From: a virus
Length of the DNA: 64,000 nt
IMG/VR virus record: IMGVR_UViG_3300027797_000012
Location: 32,001 to 96,000 of that record
Direction: 5' to 3' (one strand)
Numbering within the stretch: position 1 is the stretch's first letter; every line of letters starts with the position of its first letter. A model generated the notes under the pieces. The model was not told the origin of the DNA and ran no database searches. It saw nothing but the letters and a program-made list of their open reading frames with translations. Position numbers and translations under genes: made by a program. Of the stretch, positions 49,411 through 58,907 are shown piece by piece.

Positions 49411-51066
49411 ATGAAAGTTGCCGCTTACTCTATTGCCCTTAATGAAGAAAAACACGCCGCGCGCTGGGCCGAAACTACCAAAGGCGCCGACATCCGCGTT
49501 GTATGTGACACTGGATCCACAGATCGCACCGTTGAGATCCTGCGCGAGCATGGCGTCATCGTTTATGAAATTAACGTAAAGCCTTGGCGTTTTGACACCG
49601 CGCGAAATGCAGCGCTCGCGCTTATACCATCTGACATAGACGTATGCCTAAGCCTAGATCTTGATGAGACGTTAGATGAAGACTTCTTTGACAAGGTAAA
49701 AGAACACTGGGTGCCTGGCGCAACTCGTGGTTGGTGTGATTTTGACACGGGGCACGTCTGGTCTATGTGCAGACTTCATTCACGCGATGGAATGTATTGG
49801 AAGTGGCCTATTCATGAAGTGTTTGTTCCTTCATTAGACACTAAGCTAGTTAACTGCACGATACCTACAAAGATGTATCATAAGCCGGATAGCTCTAAGC
49901 CTCGTAGCCAGTACTTGCCTATGCTTGTTGCAGCATGCGCTGAAGAAGGAAATGCAAAAGATCATCGTCTTGTTACGTATCTATGTAGAGAATACACGTA
50001 TTATCGTGAGTGGGAACTTGTAATATCAACCGCAGAAAGACTTCTAGCGTTTAGTGATGACTGGGTAGTTGAACGTGCTGCTGTGTGTCGCTGGGCAGCA
50101 GAAGCTTGTCGCAACTTAAATCGTTTAGAAGAAGCTATGTCATGGGCGGATCGCGCTATCGAGCTAGATCCATGCGGAGAAAATTACTATGAAAAAGTTA
50201 ACTGCTACTACGCCATGAGAGACTGGGGCGGAATGTGGGAAACTTCTAAGCTTGTAGCCACGTGCGCTCCAACAAATCATTATCTTTCTTCTGGGTCTCT
50301 ATGGAAGTGGCAGCTCAACGACATGCGCGCCTTGTCAGCGCACAATCTTGGCGATAAGAAAAAGGCAGTCCTATACGGGCAAATGGCGTTAGACGCTAAT
50401 CCTACAGATCAACGCCTTGCAAATAACATCAAATTTTACGAGCAAGGCATTGAAAACTTAGAAGAAACTAGTATAGCTTCAGGACCAGCAACTTCAATAT
50501 TTGAAAGTATATACAAGAATAGCCACTGGGGAAAAGGCAGTGGCCCTGGGTCAACTGAGGAAGCTACATTAGAGTATCGAAAAATAGTGCAAGAGTGGGT
50601 TGACAAGAAAGAGATAAAAACAGTATTAGATCTCGGCTGCGGAGACTGGCAGTTCTCTAAGCTTCTTGACTTTTCAAGCGTGGACTATACAGGCGTCGAC
50701 GTTGTGCCAGACGTTATCGCGCAAAACGATATGGCATACGGCAGTAACAACATTAAGTTTGTCTTATCTGACGCGCTTAATTTTGACTTCCCTGAAGTAG
50801 ATTTAATCCTATGTAAGGACGTTCTTCAGCATCTTCCAAATAATGACGTTGACGTTATCGTAAAAAGAATACAGAAAGCGGCAAAGTACGCTTTGATATG
50901 TAATACGACATACACTCACGACAGTATTAACTACAATATTTCTCCAGGTGGCTACCGTGGACTAGACTTAAAGCTCCCACCATTCTCAATGCAGGTTGAG
51001 ACTGTGCTGCAGTGGGAAACTGCAGGGGCACCTAAAAGAATAGACCTAATAACAAGAAAAGACTAA
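49411..51066 (+). CDS. GT2 + TPR + SAM-methyltransferase fusion
   Basis: DTGSTD, LDLDE, IHE; TPR-like helices; GSGPGS, LDLGCGD, KDVLQH. Confidence 0.85.
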   Translation: MKVAAYSIALNEEKHAARWAETTKGADIRVVCDTGSTDRTVEILREHGVIVYEINVKPWRFDTARNAALALIPSDIDVCLSLDLDETLDEDFFDKVKEHWVPGATRGWCDFDTGHVWSMCRLHSRDGMYWKWPIHEVFVPSLDTKLVNCTIPTKMYHKPDSSKPRSQYLPMLVAACAEEGNAKDHRLVTYLCREYTYYREWELVISTAERLLAFSDDWVVERAAVCRWAAEACRNLNRLEEAMSWADRAIELDPCGENYYEKVNCYYAMRDWGGMWETSKLVATCAPTNHYLSSGSLWKWQLNDMRALSAHNLGDKKKAVLYGQMALDANPTDQRLANNIKFYEQGIENLEETSIASGPATSIFESIYKNSHWGKGSGPGSTEEATLEYRKIVQEWVDKKEIKTVLDLGCGDWQFSKLLDFSSVDYTGVDVVPDVIAQNDMAYGSNNIKFVLSDALNFDFPEVDLILCKDVLQHLPNNDVDVIVKRIQKAAKYALICNTTYTHDSINYNISPGGYRGLDLKLPPFSMQVETVLQWETAGAPKRIDLITRKD

Positions 51067-51944
51067 AGAACGTCTGGGACGTTTATAGCGTTATACTTAG
51101 CTTCTCTAGTCTCCGGATCTGCTAATTCGTTGTACATCCACGTAGACGCGTCTGCGTTTTCAGTTAACGTAAGTACTCCGTATATCTTTCTATTGTCTAG
51201 GTACTGATCTACGTTGTTCTTTCTTGCTGACTCTGAGAATACCATGTATTCCCAGCGATCAGATTCTTCAAGGTAACTAAGAGTGCCAAGATGCTCTCGC
51301 TTAATTAAGTACGTGCAGTGCACGCAGTCAACCTTATGCGGCTTACGCTCTTTCTGATAAAGAATCTGATAGTAAACTGGTTCAGGTATTACCGATCCGT
51401 AGCTATCTACTATATAGTGGTAATTAGAATAGTAGCGTCCTTCATGTCCAGCAAGACGATCTTTTTGATCTTCGCTGTCTGGGTGCTCTGGTGTAGCTAC
51501 CGCATACCTAAGCAGAGGCGCAACGATAGGGAGATCAAGCGCAACTAGTTCTTTAAGTGTTTCAGGGTATATAAAGTTATCAGCGTCAATAACAAAGTAG
51601 TAATCGCTACCGGCGCGTACAGCTTGACGCAGACTCTCTTGACGTATTTTACCGAGAACTCTAAATCGTTCTCCGTTCCATTCGTGCACTCCGTAATTTT
51701 CAACTTTAGTAGATACGTTTGAGCAGTCAAACAAGTAGTCTTGATACTTGTTACCGTTGGCAGAAAGCCACTCACGAAGAATTTTTTCAGAGTTATCTGT
51801 ATTGTTATTTGTTCTTACGTACAAAAATATCTTATCTTTAGGGTAGTCAAGCTCTTCTAAGGTTCTTAGAAACAGAGGAAGAACAGCTTCTTTTTGCTTA
51901 ACAAGTATGGCTATAAATACCGTAGGAAGATCAATATCATTCAT
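51063..51944 (-). CDS. glycosyltransferase resembling the procollagen galactosyltransferase N-terminal / PLOD GT domain
   Basis: PTVFIAIL..., LDYPKDKI.L...T.NN.DN...IL.EW, DAD, IVAPLL, YSNY, VHCTYLI. Confidence 0.75.
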   Translation of the reverse strand: MNDIDLPTVFIAILVKQKEAVLPLFLRTLEELDYPKDKIFLYVRTNNNTDNSEKILREWLSANGNKYQDYLFDCSNVSTKVENYGVHEWNGERFRVLGKIRQESLRQAVRAGSDYYFVIDADNFIYPETLKELVALDLPIVAPLLRYAVATPEHPDSEDQKDRLAGHEGRYYSNYHYIVDSYGSVIPEPVYYQILYQKERKPHKVDCVHCTYLIKREHLGTLSYLEESDRWEYMVFSESARKNNVDQYLDNRKIYGVLTLTENADASTWMYNELADPETREAKYNAINVPDVL

Positions 51945-53522: not shown

Positions 53523-53837
53523 TCAGGTAGGCGTGTCCTCTGGCGGTATTTCGTCAAAAGGAAGAACATTTTCTCCCTCCATGTCCATATCCATTTCTGA
53601 GTCAGCTTCTTCTATATCATCAGCTGAAACGTATATACCTACAACTGTAACCTTACTGCAGATAAAGCATTCGCAGACCGTGCCTGGAGAAAGTTTAATA
53701 GGTACATTTACGCTAACTAACCGCGTCAGAATGTTCCCTTCCATGTCTACGCTTTCTGGTTCCCACACGCTATTTTCCGCAATCCAACACCGCTCACAAA
53801 GTGGAACAAGATCATCGTTGTAATCGCGTATACTCAT
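53523..53837 (-). CDS. Zn-binding hypothetical protein
   Basis: CERC, C.CFIC. Confidence 0.65.
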   Translation of the reverse strand: MSIRDYNDDLVPLCERCWIAENSVWEPESVDMEGNILTRLVSVNVPIKLSPGTVCECFICSKVTVVGIYVSADDIEEADSEMDMDMEGENVLPFDEIPPEDTPT

Positions 53838-55099
53838 TTAGCGCTAGTCTCCATAGGGCTACTGTACCACTGTTTCTTGGCGTAGTGTCTTGAGAATCCT
53901 TTGTCTGAGTCGATTAAGTACTCTCGGTCTCCGATTAGCTCCGCAGGTTCTCCTTGTGGGTTTCCGTCAAGTGCGTCTTTAAGTGCCTTACCAATCCAGT
54001 TGGCCGCTTGCACTGGGACAGCCTTGCCCCATACAGCCGCCAGGTGAGAGTAATTGCGCGATTCTTCAATGTTCCAATCGTCAGGCAAACCTTGCATACG
54101 AGCAGACTCGCGATGCGTAATAAGGCGCGGTTGCGTCGGATGAATAACGTGGTCTAGCGCAGAGCCGGTAAGCACGTTGCACCAGTGATCTTCTTTCCAA
54201 CGGTACGGTTGCGAAAAGCCAAGCTTAAAATTTTTACGAATAACACGAGGAGAAATGTCAATCCACTTCTGAGGAAACTTACCGTCATTTAAGTCTACGG
54301 CTTTCTTAAGCGCACCGCCGGTGTCACCGTTGCCTTCCCAGCCGTCGTTGCCGATGATGCTAAAGATCTCTTCAATTCGTTGCGCATGGATGTTTGTTTT
54401 ACCGATGTGACCGTCAACCATTCCATTTTTTGTGCGTAGGTGCTTAACCCACTTAGAAGGAGAAGGCGCGGTATACTTTTGCTTATTCCAAGTCTGAGGC
54501 ATCTCCGCAAGATCACCGATGATGTCCATGATACGTGGAAGTTCTTTAGGTTCTGGAGTTACCGCGCTAAACTTAAGTCCTGACTCAACAGCAACCCAGA
54601 AGTAACGCGGGCGATATGAAAATCCGCCAACCTGTAGGTTATTTTCCTTAACGTGATACAAATCGTATTTTTTACCGGAGACTTGCTCGACCATGTCGCG
54701 ATACTTAACCATTACGTCGCGCCCTTGCGTGTACGCTTGCTGAACACACTCGAACACTATAGCGCGTGGTTTTACGCGTCCAGCGTATTTCATAAAGGCT
54801 ACGGTATGCTCGTGTGCCTTAGAGTCAGGTCCACGATTTGCAGGGCCAGACCATACAGACCAACCGGAGCATGGCGGGCAACCCATGACGATGTCTGCTT
54901 TTTGCACGCGCCATTCGTTAGGATCGTCTGAAAACTCTGAGGTCCAGTCATCTCCAAGAAGATGACGGTTGCTTTCTGCAACTACGTTTCCAAAGTTTAA
55001 TGTTCCGGTGCGTTGAATCATCTTCATGTCGTTTTGGATAAAGCCAAGACTCATAAAAGCTGCAAGCCCGTTGCAGTCGATAAAGGTATGTTGTGACAA
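53834..55099 (-). CDS. C5-cytosine methyltransferase-fold enzyme with atypical cofactor motifs
   Basis: Motif IV GCPPCSG, VI ECV, VIII RPR, IX HP..PR..T.RE.AR.QG.PD, X GKAVP; motif I degenerate. Confidence 0.85.
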   Translation of the reverse strand: MSQHTFIDCNGLAAFMSLGFIQNDMKMIQRTGTLNFGNVVAESNRHLLGDDWTSEFSDDPNEWRVQKADIVMGCPPCSGWSVWSGPANRGPDSKAHEHTVAFMKYAGRVKPRAIVFECVQQAYTQGRDVMVKYRDMVEQVSGKKYDLYHVKENNLQVGGFSYRPRYFWVAVESGLKFSAVTPEPKELPRIMDIIGDLAEMPQTWNKQKYTAPSPSKWVKHLRTKNGMVDGHIGKTNIHAQRIEEIFSIIGNDGWEGNGDTGGALKKAVDLNDGKFPQKWIDISPRVIRKNFKLGFSQPYRWKEDHWCNVLTGSALDHVIHPTQPRLITHRESARMQGLPDDWNIEESRNYSHLAAVWGKAVPVQAANWIGKALKDALDGNPQGEPAELIGDREYLIDSDKGFSRHYAKKQWYSSPMETSAK

Positions 55100-55162: not shown

Positions 55163-55486
55163 TTACTCAGAAAGATTTGCTTTTTTCTCTAGATCAATCA
55201 TGCCTACCTCATAGCCGCAACCTGCGTATCCCGCGATATCAATCCAGGTATCTCCCTGGAACCCAGATTTAGACGCGTATCGAGCGACTTTAAGACCTAC
55301 CATCATCATGGCAACGTCTTCTTGTGATAAGTCTATACCTAGTATGACTGACCAGATCTTGCCTATTCTAGCAAAGTTTTCTTCAGGAGCGCCGTACTGC
55401 GCATCTCTATCTCCAGAGATAATTTTAGCAGCTTCGCGTAGAGCTTCTACTCGGTACTGCAGAGGCTCATTTGATGAATCAGCCAT
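55163..55486 (-). CDS. DUF6378-like protein
   Basis: GDR..QYG.P..NF..I...W, DVA.MM..LK.AR, D.W.DIAGYA. Confidence 0.85.
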   Translation of the reverse strand: MADSSNEPLQYRVEALREAAKIISGDRDAQYGAPEENFARIGKIWSVILGIDLSQEDVAMMMVGLKVARYASKSGFQGDTWIDIAGYAGCGYEVGMIDLEKKANLSE

Positions 55487-55697: not shown

Positions 55698-56116
55698 TAG
55701 CGAACTCTCTTCTCTAGTTGGTGCGGTGAATAGTGTGCCCCGTCTAAGATAGGTTCTTTATCATCTGTAGACTTAAATATAATGTCGCCGTAACGGATTC
55801 CTACAACCTTACCGCGTCTCCCGTTGTGAATACCGCCGGTTGCGCCGTCGTACGCGTCAGCCTTGACACGCACGTCGTCACCTAGACTAATTGCGCCTGG
55901 TTGCGCATCAACCCATAGCTCATCAGGATTATTTTTTACTGCGGCATGCCCAAGAGAAAGACGGCTAAATAGCGCTATAACTTCCTTTTGCTGGTTTACT
56001 GATAGGGTAATATCTTTCCAAGTTGCAAGAAGTTTAAGTGTAGCATTACCGATACCTACTTTAGTCTTTGCATCTTGCATTTCAGATCTGACCCATTCAT
56101 CGTTGACTTCAGGCAC
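55697..56116 (-). CDS. hypothetical protein with C-terminal SH3/KOW-like domain
   Basis: GDDVRV...HNGRRGKVVGI. Confidence 0.65.
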   Translation of the reverse strand: MPEVNDEWVRSEMQDAKTKVGIGNATLKLLATWKDITLSVNQQKEVIALFSRLSLGHAAVKNNPDELWVDAQPGAISLGDDVRVKADAYDGATGGIHNGRRGKVVGIRYGDIIFKSTDDKEPILDGAHYSPHQLEKRVR

Positions 56117-56594
56117 TGTAGTCTACCTCCTTAGGTAAGCACTTTGCGCACATGTCTGGGCTAGCGCCTCTACCAACGTCGTCGATAGCTCTAGTGCACA
56201 ATGCACATTTTACGCCTTCTTCTTTAACTTTGTACCCTTTTAGCTGTCTTTCTTTATTGCGCTCCATTTTTTCAAGATAGAACTTGTCAAGCATTTCGTC
56301 AGTTCCGCCAGCTGCAACAATGATATTAGCCACAAAGTGTAGAACATCAACAGCTTCTTTGATTACTTCTTCTCTATCAGCGTAAGGTTGGTCGTGTTGC
56401 CAAGGCTTCCACGAGATTGCTTGGCGCATCTCTGCAAGTTCATCGTCTACCGCAAGCATGTTCCAGCGCAGGTACTCAACGAACCGACGTATATTCTGAG
56501 GCTTATCGCCTTCCATATCTTCGTAGTTAATAAAGTACACGTCTTTTTGTAGATCTTTTGTTCTTTTTAGCCATGAATTAAACAGAATAGTCAT
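56109..56594 (-). CDS. all-alpha NTP pyrophosphatase (dimeric dUTPase/dCTPase-like)
   Basis: DELAE....WKPW, KEAVDVLHF, Y..K...N..RQ..GY. Confidence 0.85.
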   Translation of the reverse strand: MTILFNSWLKRTKDLQKDVYFINYEDMEGDKPQNIRRFVEYLRWNMLAVDDELAEMRQAISWKPWQHDQPYADREEVIKEAVDVLHFVANIIVAAGGTDEMLDKFYLEKMERNKERQLKGYKVKEEGVKCALCTRAIDDVGRGASPDMCAKCLPKEVDYSA

Positions 56595-56597
56595 ATA

Positions 56598-57617
56598 CTA
56601 ACCTTTCTTAGAATATAGTTTAAGTGCACTTGACAGCGCGATTGCTGCATCGGTGCGAGTTGGTATTGCGTTTACATAGTCCTTACGTTGTTCTTTAGCA
56701 AGTGCGTTTCTTTCTTCTTGAGACATATCTTCTATCTTTGAAGCTAGATGCGCCCATGAACTGCCAATAGCGCTACTCTCTCGCCAATCTGTAGCTACAG
56801 GGGTTAACGTATTTATACATTGTATAAGTCTGTATGACCACCACGTGCCGTTTAGGTGCGGATTGAACAAGGCTCCTACGCCGGCAGCAATTTGATTTTC
56901 TACCTGCATGTCTGTCCAACCTTTATGCCACTTCATAGGAACCGTAGGTCTTTGTAAAGTAGCAGTTGTTGATTTTACCCACGATGATGAATAGTTTTCA
57001 ACTACCCACTTTTCACGGCGTTCTAGCTCGATAACATCTTGATTGTTTATAAGATAGGAATCTAAACTTATAGGAATTAGTGAAGCAGCAGCGCCTTTCG
57101 GCAGTTGAGCAGCCACCTTACTTACGTCCTGCCACGGAAGGGAAGGATAGAGCGTTGTTGGCCATTCTTTAGTAAGTAGGTGCTCTACTACGTCTAATAA
57201 GTTTTGAAGCATGTTTGGCTGCGACGCTGTGTCATATCCTTTTCTATACGAATAGAAAGGTTTAGTTAAGTTATCCGGTGTCTTTACTATTGCACGAAGG
57301 CTAGACGTAATCCGGTTTGGCTCCGGCGCGTCTAAGAAAAGAACTAGCTTATCGGTGTCAAGCAATACGTCTATAACGCTTAATGCGCCATAGACTCTGT
57401 TTGCGCTTAAGCTTGTCAAAGGGCTTAGCCCAACTAAAACGGAGTCGTACTCATTTAAGTCTTTAGTGTTCCATGAGACTTCAGGATCTAGTTGCACTAC
57501 GTCATGTCCTTGAAGAACTAGCACAGTCCTTATTACACTTGCAAACGACGCAGATCTGGCATTTGCAGTTTCGGATGCGTGCGAAGCTGACATACCAGTT
57601 ATAAGAATTTTGCTCAT
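56598..57617 (-). CDS. GT-B-like protein, degenerate paralogue of 57614..58825
   Basis: KILITG, GHDV, DL..YD.V.V.L.PL.SL, GAL, WWS.R. Confidence 0.6.
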   Translation of the reverse strand: MSKILITGMSASHASETANARSASFASVIRTVLVLQGHDVVQLDPEVSWNTKDLNEYDSVLVGLSPLTSLSANRVYGALSVIDVLLDTDKLVLFLDAPEPNRITSSLRAIVKTPDNLTKPFYSYRKGYDTASQPNMLQNLLDVVEHLLTKEWPTTLYPSLPWQDVSKVAAQLPKGAAASLIPISLDSYLINNQDVIELERREKWVVENYSSSWVKSTTATLQRPTVPMKWHKGWTDMQVENQIAAGVGALFNPHLNGTWWSYRLIQCINTLTPVATDWRESSAIGSSWAHLASKIEDMSQEERNALAKEQRKDYVNAIPTRTDAAIALSSALKLYSKKG

Positions 57618-58825
57618 GCTGGCGTCCCGTCAGCGTTACGCTTAACGCCTTTGTCCTCTGCAACAGCGCGCTCGATGATGCGATTGCAATGTTCTACAAA
57701 CGCGGAGTACTCCGGGATATATGGAGCAAGTGCGGCGCGTTGAGCCATAGCCGCTTCATGTAGCTCTGTATCAGACATTTTCTCGACATCTGTAATCTTT
57801 AACTTATACGCATCGCCAAGTGGATCCCCTTCACCCTTATCGGTGACAAGTATAGAACCCACATGCGCTGCGTATAGGAAGCGGCTGCGCCACCAGCCAG
57901 AGCCCGCGTGCGGATACGGCGGAGAAAGAATACCCCAGTGATGATTATAGAATTCAATAACGTCTTGTTCAGTGTCAAAGCGTTGTCCGCCAAGTTTTTT
58001 AATAAGCTTACGACTTCCAACAATTTCAACCGGCCAGTCTGGATTTTTCTTTTCTAACCAAGTATCATGTGGCATAAGAGCTCCAAGCACCCATGCACGC
58101 TTCTTGCTTGTCGGTGGCAGAGGAGTAACTGGTTGCAACGTTGGGACAATAGTTGCCGTAGGGTCTAGAGCTTCGATAGGGCCAACTTCATCAGGCATAC
58201 GCTTACGTACACTAGATCTATCTCCGAAAGCGTACATAGGGCACACTGGAACCATACCAGCAGCCCATCTATCAGCAAGTAAGTCGCGAGCAGCTTCAAC
58301 TAAACGCTTCTCGTAAGGCTTAATGTTTTCGTCGTTGTCCATCATATAGTAGCGTTCGATGTAGCACTTTTTTGCCGCCGCAGGATTTAATTCTTTAACT
58401 CGCTCGAGCGCTGCCTCGATGTCTGCGCGACTAAAATAAGTTGCGCCTTCTTCACCGCGATGCTCAGTTCCTACAAGCAGATGCTTATACAACATCTCCG
58501 GTTTACGAATAAGCGCACGTGCACCGTTAAACACTGTGTTAAACTGCCAATCATCAAAAAATCCTACACAAGGAATACCAGATGACAGTGCGTATAGCGC
58601 GCCCATCGCACCTTGACGACCATTCAACGAGTTAAGTGGTGCAAGATTTATCCACAGTACATCATAACTAGAAAGATCTTCGCCTGGAGTAATTTTACGC
58701 CAGTCAACATCATGTCCAGCTTCGCGCAGTGCTTTAGCGACAGACGCAGGTACGTCAATCTTTTGTATTGTGCGTTTTTCTGTGTTGATCTGCAACGCAG
58801 TGAAACCACTCATCAATACCTTCAT
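57614..58825 (-). CDS. GT-B-like glycosyltransferase, candidate DNA-modifying enzyme
   Basis: AL..AGHDV, FDDWQ, GIL.PPY.HAGSGWWR.RF; located in the replication operon. Confidence 0.65.
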   Translation of the reverse strand: MKVLMSGFTALQINTEKRTIQKIDVPASVAKALREAGHDVDWRKITPGEDLSSYDVLWINLAPLNSLNGRQGAMGALYALSSGIPCVGFFDDWQFNTVFNGARALIRKPEMLYKHLLVGTEHRGEEGATYFSRADIEAALERVKELNPAAAKKCYIERYYMMDNDENIKPYEKRLVEAARDLLADRWAAGMVPVCPMYAFGDRSSVRKRMPDEVGPIEALDPTATIVPTLQPVTPLPPTSKKRAWVLGALMPHDTWLEKKNPDWPVEIVGSRKLIKKLGGQRFDTEQDVIEFYNHHWGILSPPYPHAGSGWWRSRFLYAAHVGSILVTDKGEGDPLGDAYKLKITDVEKMSDTELHEAAMAQRAALAPYIPEYSAFVEHCNRIIERAVAEDKGVKRNADGTPA

Positions 58826-58907
58826 GTCCACTACCTTTCTAAGTAGATTTGGAATATCATCTACGCACTGTACCAGGAATAGATGATAGACCAGACTTAC
58901 TTAGTCT

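Follow-up and report, generated by a model that had tools for sequence, protein, structure and literature searches.

Locus and fold of the enzyme

The stretch of DNA analysed here (the window, 64,000 nucleotides) corresponds to bases 32001–96000 of the 130,553-bp IMG/VR virus record IMGVR_UViG_3300027797_000012, which CheckV rated as complete. The subject of this report is a cytosine-C5 methyltransferase-fold enzyme with lysine in motif X, hereafter MTase(K), which was identified in the six-frame open reading frame (ORF) list of the window at 53834..55099 on the minus strand and comprises 421 amino acids with a TTG start. MTase(K) was the sole match to Pfam family PF00145 in the 130,553-bp genome (E = 8.8e-21, 75.1 bits). 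The match covered positions 58–323 of the 324-position profile, leaving the N-terminal part, which contains the S-adenosylmethionine (SAM) loop, unmatched. A megablast search with 10 kb around the gene gave no match in the phage collection.

An AlphaFold2 model based on the 117-sequence alignment described below had a predicted local distance difference test score (pLDDT) of 96.1 and a predicted template modelling score (pTM) of 0.94; it replaced a single-sequence model that was unusable (pLDDT 32.6). Residues 1–380 of the model superposed on DNMT1 with a VIA Z score of 29.9 (root-mean-square deviation [rmsd] 3.4, 358 residues aligned), and the model also matched the prophage CP-933R methylase 3g7u (Z 29.0), M.HaeIII (1dct; Z 28.7, rmsd 2.7, 288 aligned), M.HhaI (Z 26.1), M.MpeI (4dkj; Z 24.1), and CmoX (8yf3; Z 23.3). 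As modelled, MTase(K) is a full two-domain cytosine-C5 methyltransferase fold.

Motifs of the enzyme

Direct translation and alignment bore out the motifs quoted in a first-pass annotation of the window, namely DCNGLAAF, PPC, ECV, RxR, motif IX, the missing motif II Glu, and GKAV. On the minus strand, the altered motif I DCNGLAAF (residues 8–15) is encoded at 55055..55078, motif IV PPC (residues 75–77) with the catalytic Cys77 at 54869..54877, the segment from motif VI ECV (Glu117) to motif VIII RPR (Arg163 and Arg165) at 54605..54751, and motif X GKAV at 54017..54028, with the Lys359 codon at 54023–54025. The residues that act on the base are thus all present: the Pro-Cys nucleophile, the motif VI Glu, and the Arg-x-Arg of motif VIII, with motif IX also kept.

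The cofactor side is systematically altered. The family profile paired motif I "vdcqglAGgf" with "ISLFSGAGGL" of M.HaeIII, and the same alignment placed Asn10 in the column of the canonical motif I Phe and Leu12 in that of the first Gly; N-G-L-A-A of MTase(K) stands opposite F-S-G-A-G of M.HaeIII, and the F-x-G-x-G SAM loop is missing. The acidic residue of motif II, which in canonical enzymes binds the SAM ribose, is also missing, with Gly32 in the column of the Glu of the M.HaeIII "ANE" motif. In motif X, HMMER paired GKAVPV with GNAVPV of M.HaeIII and GNAVP of plant MET1, so that Lys359 replaces the Asn of the Gly-Asn pair. We take this Asn to be Asn304 of M.HhaI. Asn304 is reported to correspond to Arg350 of CmoX, a phage enzyme that carboxymethylates cytosine (PMC12783734). 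On these alignments, Lys359 most probably occupies the position of M.HhaI Asn304, M.MpeI Asn374, and CmoX Arg350, in agreement with the first-pass placement of the Lys at the first two.

Family-wide conservation of the altered motifs

An exhaustive HMMER search over 1.84 billion cluster representatives retrieved 905 relatives of MTase(K) at E ≤ 1e-3, of which 137 also passed E ≤ 1e-30; most aligned over their whole length. Of the 321 proteins that a word-indexed search returned at E ≤ 1e-5, the best 120 shared 60–93% identity with MTase(K). Two alignments were prepared: the first (n = 97) comprised the query and 96 proteins of 370–480 amino acids among 150 listed representatives, and the second (n = 117 rows) was extended with 20 close relatives.

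In the first alignment, the motif X column held Lys in 92 sequences, Arg in three, Ser in one, and Gln in one, with no Asn; in the second, Lys was found in 112 of 117 rows, again with no Asn. Base-side residues were nearly invariant: the catalytic Cys was kept in 94 of the 97 members, the motif VI Glu in 96, the residue equivalent to Arg163 in 94, and that equivalent to Arg165 in all 97. The Asn of ENV was replaced by Ser in 90/97 and by Cys in the clade of the query. The residue before PPC was mostly Asn (N62/T13/C10/V9, n = 97), MTase(K) itself having CPPC. At n = 117, column 10 (canonical motif I Phe) read Q51/N30/H13, column 12 (first motif I Gly) L57/F48, and the motif II Glu column E61/G30/S12.

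Two sub-types were distinguished. The first combines a motif II Glu with the motif X Lys (58 of the 117 rows) and retains the Gly-Gly of motif I. The second is the clade of the query, in which Gly32 stands for the Glu and Gly-Gly has become Ala-Phe or Gly-Phe; on this alignment, MTase(K) sits in the most stripped-down branch of the family. Because Lys is present in 112/117 sequences alongside a near-invariant Cys, Glu, and pair of Arg residues, the aligned motif changes are the signature of a large family and not a sign of decay. The term "eroded", which had been applied to motif I in the first-pass annotation, is therefore abandoned here: the changes mark a large family, with 137 clusters at E ≤ 1e-30.

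Compared with canonical C5-methylases (M.HaeIII, M.HhaI, 3g7u, and DNMT1/MET1), MTase(K) has the same two-domain fold, PPC Cys, motif VI Glu, RxR, and motif IX. It differs from them in the replacement of the motif I Phe by Asn (mostly Gln in the family), of the first Gly by Leu or Phe, of the ENV Asn by Cys or Ser, and of the motif X Asn by Lys. These comparisons bear on the simplest alternative, that MTase(K) is a divergent but ordinary SAM-dependent cytosine-5 methyltransferase producing 5-methylcytosine (5mC) at particular sites, in residual phage cytosines, or in host DNA. The complete C5-methylase fold with all base-side catalytic residues is consistent with it, as are the methyltransferase labels that relatives carry in public records, the motif II Glu in 58/117 sequences, and the motif I Gly-Gly in most. 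Against ordinary methylation, the motif X Asn occurs in 0/117 sequences, both the motif I Phe and the first Gly are replaced throughout the family, and the clade of the query has in addition lost the motif II Glu and Gly-Gly. We return to it below, together with the genomic context.

A thymidylate synthase-like gene beyond the window

A three-gene operon in the same orientation as the MTase(K) operon was found approximately 2 kb past the right end of the window, at G000:C1 97354–99878 in record coordinates (window-equivalent 65354–67878). It encodes a deoxycytidine monophosphate (dCMP) deaminase (97354–97833), a thymidylate synthase (TS)-family protein (98008–98877; PF00303, E = 8.7e-29), and a P-loop kinase-like protein of 338 amino acids (98862–99878). 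The kinase-like matches were weak and below cut-offs (AAA_18, 20.4 bits against a cut-off of 29.4; deoxythymidine monophosphate kinase, E = 1.3e-4). This protein also has an unexplained C-terminal extension of about 130 amino acids.

The best Protein Data Bank (PDB) match of the TS-like protein was the CMP 5-hydroxymethylase MilA (E = 7.9e-24), and its scores fell far under every NCBIfam ThyA cut-off (e.g., 87.1 versus 174.55 bits). Among 60 phage records spread evenly over the 3,465 that matched, the closest after Actinomycetia phage DSL-LC01 was Pseudomonas phage ZC01 (31.8% identity), whose matching protein is annotated as a deoxyuridine monophosphate (dUMP) hydroxymethyltransferase. Pyrimidine specificity in this fold is set by the residue at T4 gp42 Asp179, equivalent to E. 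coli ThyA Asn177. At this column the TS-like protein has Asp, as do T4-like gp42 and the OLIVR6 dCMP hydroxymethylase, and Asn is found in T4-like td and the ZC01 dUMP hydroxymethylase. On these features the TS-like protein is more like a cytosine-specific hydroxymethylase than like ThyA. Its public relatives are labelled thymidylate synthase, and those of the kinase-like protein thymidylate kinase; the synthase label is probably wrong.

The first-pass annotation had noted glycosyltransferases with neither a TET enzyme nor a dCMP hydroxymethylase in the window, and had offered a handle placed on cytosine by MTase(K) as the explanation. This argument fails, since an Asp-type TS homologue lies about 2 kb outside, where a search for TS-like genes in the rest of the genome, as had been suggested, recovered it. 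Searches of the genome for TET/JBP (PF12851) and ThyX (PF02511) were negative.

To evaluate how regularly the TS-like gene accompanies the Lys-type enzyme, we examined 22 other family-bearing records, consisting of 14 diverse IMG/VR loci, five long close relatives, and three named phages. A TS-family gene was present in 20 of the 22, and the two records that lacked it were fragments estimated to be 9% and 21% complete; all eight records that were at least 90% complete carried it. Every one of the 21 TS-like proteins, including that of the phage studied here, had Asp at the specificity column. As a control we used the 10 weakest of 24 loci recovered with a family alignment (see below), which are ordinary methylases with PF00145 scores up to 245 bits and have Asn in motif X in nine cases (one unresolved). 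No TS-family gene was detected in these 10 control records, only two of which were at least 90% complete.

This association (20/22 against 0/10 for ordinary methylases) is unexplained if MTase(K) is an ordinary methylase, and no restriction-modification setting was found for the family in cellular genomes. Taken with the altered cofactor motifs, the genomic context makes plain SAM-dependent methylation unlikely. Unlike canonical C5-methylases, the Lys-type family was seen solely in phage-like DNA and is accompanied by a dCMP-type TS homologue. A metagenomic association study, MetaGPA (eLife), tied TS, pyrophosphohydrolase, and dCMP deaminase genes to contigs with modified cytosine; the methyltransferase terms that we looked for did not appear in the portion of that paper available to us.

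Distribution of the family

A tblastn search of the phage collection with MTase(K) matched 20 records, namely Actinomycetia phage DSL-LC01 at 65% identity, 13 Gordonia phage records at 34–36%, Micrococcus phage Kurnik at 33%, and five cyanophage records at approximately 21%. Cultured relatives include the Gordonia phages GMA2, Phendrix, and GodonK, as well as Kurnik. In IMG/VR, at least 113 close relatives of MTase(K) were found, and a search with an alignment of 20 sequences from the Glu-type branch gave 24 loci, 14 of which were convincing family members.

A pattern-based scan of one genome each from 185,579 prokaryote species yielded two loci, both on phage-like contigs of metagenome-assembled genomes (MAGs). 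Phage replication genes are present on both contigs, and on one of them TS-like, MazG, and kinase-like genes adjoin the locus; no restriction-modification setting was seen at either of these two loci. All occurrences of the Lys-type family that we found were in phage-like DNA. The bacteria infected by the named relatives, together with a DSL-LC01 homologue annotated as WhiB, suggest that the host of the phage is an actinobacterium.

The operon in the window

Within the window, MTase(K) lies in a packed minus-strand operon, where it follows twin genes for proteins of 405 and 339 amino acids, a MazG-like gene, two small ORFs, and a DUF6378 gene. The MazG-like gene (56109..56594, minus strand) encodes an all-alpha nucleoside triphosphate (NTP) pyrophosphohydrolase of the dUTPase_2 family (PF08761, E = 8.7e-11; PHROG dUTPase / NTP-PPase), a candidate deoxycytidine triphosphatase (dCTPase). 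Across the 14 diverse IMG/VR loci, a homologue of this gene abuts the MTase(K) gene in seven and lies beside the TS-like gene in three more; it was not detected in the other four, and in one of these a trimeric dUTPase/dCTP-deaminase-like gene stands in its place.

The DUF6378 protein (107 amino acids; 55163..55486, minus strand; PF19905, E = 5.2e-29) is encoded in the same operon, and its homologues lie near TS-like, MazG, or MTase(K) genes in four of 17 related loci (L100, L102, L104, and L001). The PHROGs name for its relatives, "phosphofructokinase", looks like a propagated misannotation.

The 339-amino-acid protein (56598..57617, minus strand) is 37% identical to a DSL-LC01 hypothetical protein, and its 405-amino-acid paralogue (57614..58831, minus strand) is 23% identical to it and 29% identical to a DSL-LC01 protein annotated as a glycosyltransferase. 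Neither twin had a Pfam, NCBIfam, or PDB sequence match; Pfam at E ≤ 10 and a seven-sequence profile run against PDB sequences gave nothing meaningful, and a six-frame search of the genome with PF09198, the T4 beta-glucosyltransferase family, gave no match at E ≤ 10. In an Atlas feature search, which uses a protein language model, PF09198 (T4-Gluco-transf) clusters ranked 12 and 22 for the 339-amino-acid protein (score 0.95), and a PF09198 cluster ranked 12 for the 405-amino-acid protein (score 0.96). As leads only, the former may be a T4 beta-glucosyltransferase-like enzyme and the latter a GT-B-like glycosyltransferase.

The genes in the slot upstream of this module differ between phages. 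Among the related loci searched, homologues of the twins were found only in L096, DSL-LC01, and Phendrix. The slot holds a weak Glyco_trans_1_2-like protein and a sugar nucleotidyltransferase in L095, and a sugar epimerase in L104. In L105 (6151–9152, plus strand), upstream of MazG and MTase(K), it holds a myo-inositol-1-phosphate synthase, a weak amino acid:DNA transferase (ADDT)-like protein (24.7 bits, cut-off 26.2), and an HMUDK_HMUD1 kinase of the 5-hydroxymethyldeoxyuridine (5-hmdU) DNA kinase family (35 bits, cut-off 27). The phage of L105 thus combines a toolkit for thymidine hypermodification with a TS homologue specific for cytosine. The decorating genes that adjoin the module vary from phage to phage.

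The T-even pathway to 5-hydroxymethylcytosine (5hmC) uses the gp42 dCMP hydroxymethylase, the gp56 dCTPase, the gp1 kinase, and alpha- and beta-glucosyltransferases. The phage studied here resembles it in having an Asp-type TS homologue, an all-alpha NTP pyrophosphohydrolase, a kinase-like gene, a dCMP deaminase, and, within the replication operon, two possible beta-glucosyltransferase-like genes. By homology, MTase(K) appears to belong to a T4-like pre-replicative cytosine-replacement system made up of a TS-fold enzyme of the dCMP hydroxymethylase type, a kinase-like protein, the MazG-like dCTPase candidate, and dCMP deaminase. T4 is not known to have a partner of the C5-methylase fold, whereas such an enzyme is a constant member of the present module.

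That the constant companions of the family are cytosine-removing genes, whatever the decorating genes may be, also fits a logic of self-immunity. MTase(K) could then attack cytosine-containing host DNA to which the 5-substituted DNA of the phage is immune, a donor-free attack of Cys on C6 with protonation of C5 by Lys359 leading to deamination to uracil or to a trapped adduct. C5-methylases do deaminate cytosine when SAM is lacking. An attack on host DNA is disfavoured by the domain fusions described next (a hydroxymethylpyrimidine DNA kinase and O-methyltransferase-type domains), which suggest instead that the modified base of the phage itself is the shared substrate; no uracil-processing nuclease partner was seen, although none was specifically searched for, and the proposal is wholly inferential. 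We regard it as very unlikely.

Domain fusions

We scanned 20 family members longer than 500 amino acids for additional domains. In one, P0243, the fusion partner was HMUDK_hel (E = 5e-40), which is the helical part of 5-hmdU DNA kinase; four carried an FkbM-type methyltransferase domain, and three a Methyltransf_23 (UbiG-like) domain; all eight of these enzyme fusions retain the Lys. One further member had a winged-helix MarR/TrmB domain and one an intein, and no additional domain was detected in the remaining 10. The intein, in the 752-amino-acid P0235, carries a LAGLIDADG homing-endonuclease domain (Hint_2, LAGLIDADG_3, and Intein_splicing). A scan of viral contigs with the kinase-fused P0243 found no relative. 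Because HMUDK_hel was present in only one of the 22 related records, the DNA kinase is not a constant partner of the family.

Kinases, O-methyltransferases, and glycosyltransferases act on hydroxyl groups. The types of fused and neighbouring proteins, being hydroxyl-directed kinase, O-methyltransferase-type, and glycosyltransferase partners, therefore point to a hydroxymethyl and not a carboxymethyl substituent, with methyl-esterification of a carboxyl group also possible.

The winged-helix domain, together with the donor pocket, which is most degraded in the clade of the query, would be consistent with a non-catalytic role, in which MTase(K) is a base-flipping DNA-binding protein that reads modified cytosine or serves as a scaffold presenting the base to decorating enzymes. 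A pure binder needs no catalytic Cys, and this residue is kept in 94/97 members along with the Glu and both Arg residues, which makes such a role highly improbable.

Comparison with carboxy-SAM-dependent enzymes

The first-pass annotation had proposed that MTase(K) is a natural enzyme using a donor other than SAM, such as carboxy-S-adenosylmethionine (Cx-SAM), to place a carboxymethyl handle on cytosine for neighbouring glycosyltransferases. Such an enzyme would be a Cx-SAM-dependent DNA cytosine C5-carboxymethyltransferase, a Lys-type analogue of CmoX and M.MpeI N374K that draws Cx-SAM from the host and makes 5-carboxymethylcytosine (5cxmC). The natural precedent is CmoX of Synechococcus phage S-B43, which makes 5cxmC from Cx-SAM supplied by the phage CmoA; its Arg350, in place of M.HhaI Asn304, is in contact with the carboxymethyl group, and glycine is ligated in a later step by CmoY (PMC12783734). 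The motif X position decides Cx-SAM use both in engineered M.MpeI N374K and in natural CmoX, and the CmoA of E. coli was sufficient for CmoX in vivo (PMC12783734). MTase(K) shares with both enzymes the C5-methylase fold and, beside the transferred group, a basic residue where motif X normally has Asn, and it is like SpCmoX in being encoded by a phage and proposed to install or serve a hypermodification. The residue is Lys and not Arg, as in the engineered M.MpeI N374K, whose property it may share. The fused class I methyltransferase domains could, on this proposal, esterify the carboxylate.

Other features separate MTase(K) from CmoX. The CmoX candidates in the literature, 5,615 in number, were defined by SPPC and Arg350, with 4,257 CmoA genes on their contigs (PMC12783734), whereas MTase(K) has CPPC, the family mostly NPPC, and CmoA (TIGR00740) was detected in none of 23 enzyme-bearing records (the phage and its 22 relatives) at E ≤ 0.01 or looser. 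The search for a cmoA-like gene that the first-pass annotation had called for was thus negative in the phage and in all 22 related records. A CmoY-type ligase of the Asn-synthase type (PF00733) was likewise found in 0/23 records, other ligase families not having been searched. The adenosine contacts of CmoX are Phe25, Glu47, and Asp69 (PMC12783734), and the first two correspond to Asn10 and Gly32 in MTase(K). In structure, ordinary methylases (Z 26–30) are at least as close to MTase(K) as CmoX is (Z 23.3).

The host also seems an improbable source of Cx-SAM. Family locus L136 lies in G030, a Coriobacteriia MAG, and among 201 genomes sampled from the phylum of this MAG no CmoA match exceeded the cut-off; the best three sub-threshold matches, near full length, scored 132–152 bits, one of them in genome G032. 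In addition, a dCMP-type TS homologue is present in every complete enzyme-bearing genome and would occupy C5 before DNA synthesis; if C5 already carries a hydroxymethyl group when DNA is synthesized, no carboxymethyl handle can be added there. We therefore consider cytosine carboxymethylation distinctly unlikely. What stands of the first-pass proposal is the altered cofactor side, the basic residue in motif X, and the plausibility of a non-methyl activity; the argument from a missing dCMP hydroxymethylase does not.

Proposed function

The reading that we favour, tentatively and at somewhat less than an even chance, is that MTase(K) acts on the 5hmC-containing DNA of the phage itself by non-methyl covalent Cys-C6 catalysis, and not by carboxymethylation of cytosine. 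It draws on the observed fold, motifs, family-wide signature, genomic coupling, and domain fusions; from these we infer that the phage DNA holds 5hmC, that 5hmC is the substrate, and what the chemistry may be.

Cytosine would be replaced by 5hmC before replication, so that C5 is occupied and alkyl transfer to it impossible. The conserved Cys, Glu, and Arg residues would flip the base, and Cys77 would add to C6. Lys359 would stand at the place of the transferred methyl and hence near the 5-CH2-OH group, where it could protonate the leaving hydroxyl or, in phages with a kinase, bind a departing phosphate. Part of the SAM site would be taken up by the bulky Leu or Phe of the glycine loop, and the 5-substituent would be exchanged or further modified without transfer of a methyl group from SAM. 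There is chemical precedent for such a reaction: in thiol coupling, addition at C6 is followed by departure of the hydroxyl, and the nucleophile then adds to the exocyclic methylene so formed. Ordinary C5-methylases deprived of cofactor catalyse the reversible addition of formaldehyde to cytosine and the coupling of thiols to 5hmC (PMC7176277). We favour non-methyl, Cys-dependent chemistry because of this cofactor-free precedent, the retained base-side residues, and the likely placement of Lys359.

The thymidine hypermodification pathways, with their 5-hmdU DNA kinase and amino acid:DNA transferase, offer a parallel in the HMUDK_hel fusion and in the HMUDK_HMUD1 and ADDT-like neighbours of L105. 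By analogy, these kinase and ADDT-like partners suggest activation and substitution at a 5-hydroxymethyl group. In contrast to the thymidine pathways, the TS homologues that accompany the Lys-type family specify cytosine and not uracil, and we know of no published thymidine pathway that includes an enzyme of the C5-methylase fold.

Several points weigh against the action on 5hmC proposed here. The product of the TS-like protein could be 5-methyl-dCMP or another compound, and the 5hmC content of the DNA is a prediction. The Glu-type half of the family (58/117) keeps the motif II Glu and Gly-Gly and may bind an adenosyl cofactor, either SAM or an analogue. T4 glucosylates 5hmC without such an enzyme, and no known pathway step needs one. 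Because the phages counted are related, the co-occurrences are not phylogenetically independent events; the kinase-like assignment of the 338-amino-acid protein is weak, and the glycosyltransferase assignment of the twins is a lead only. The placement of Lys359 in the pocket derives from alignment and not from model coordinates.

A broader version, which we hold to be rather doubtful, is that the Lys-type family would be the first natural case of a C5-methyltransferase fold operating without any transfer from SAM. It would use Cys-C6 catalysis on 5hmC or its phosphate in already synthesized DNA to form an exocyclic methylene and exchange the 5-CH2-O substituent, and would serve as a common activating step of a hitherto undescribed group of cytosine hypermodifications in actinobacterial phages, with the decorations (sugar, amino acid, phosphate, or methyl) set by whichever variable genes lie nearby or are fused to it.

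Known routes to modified cytosine in phages include a pre-replicative TS-type hydroxymethylase followed by glycosyl- or carbamoyltransferases, and a methylase combined with TET. CmoA/CmoX carboxymethylation, described in 2025, is a third (PMC12783734). A methylase-fold enzyme with a rebuilt donor pocket that is tied to the hydroxymethylase route matches none of these. We found no account in the literature of the Lys-type family or of its link to a TS-type hydroxymethylase, the supplementary lists of the CmoX and MetaGPA papers not being covered by this search, and no DNA-modification data for the cultured Gordonia and Micrococcus phages of the family; the part of the GMA2 paper available to us mentions only putative methylase and glycosyltransferase genes. 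The enzyme could reveal a new DNA reaction and possibly new modified bases that shield phages from host nucleases. Until now, the action of C5-methylases on 5hmC with no cofactor has been a laboratory curiosity put to use in sequencing methods, and a natural enzyme evolved for this chemistry, if such it is, would be a useful tool for 5hmC labelling. The cultured relatives GMA2, Phendrix, GodonK, and Kurnik make the question directly testable.

Other genes near the enzyme

Three further features lie downstream of MTase(K) in the window. A Cys-rich ORF of 104 amino acids with an acidic tail (53523–53837, minus strand) overlaps the MTase(K) stop codon by four bases and had no homologue among the 17 related loci searched. 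The region 49411–51944 encodes a 551-amino-acid GT2-TPR-class I methyltransferase fusion and a convergent, weakly GT2-like gene (293 amino acids). A pyrimidine-dimer DNA glycosylase of the T4 endonuclease V type (PF03013; 52963–53490, minus strand) is encoded about 0.3 kb downstream of MTase(K); DSL-LC01 and locus L107 have a homologue at the corresponding position.

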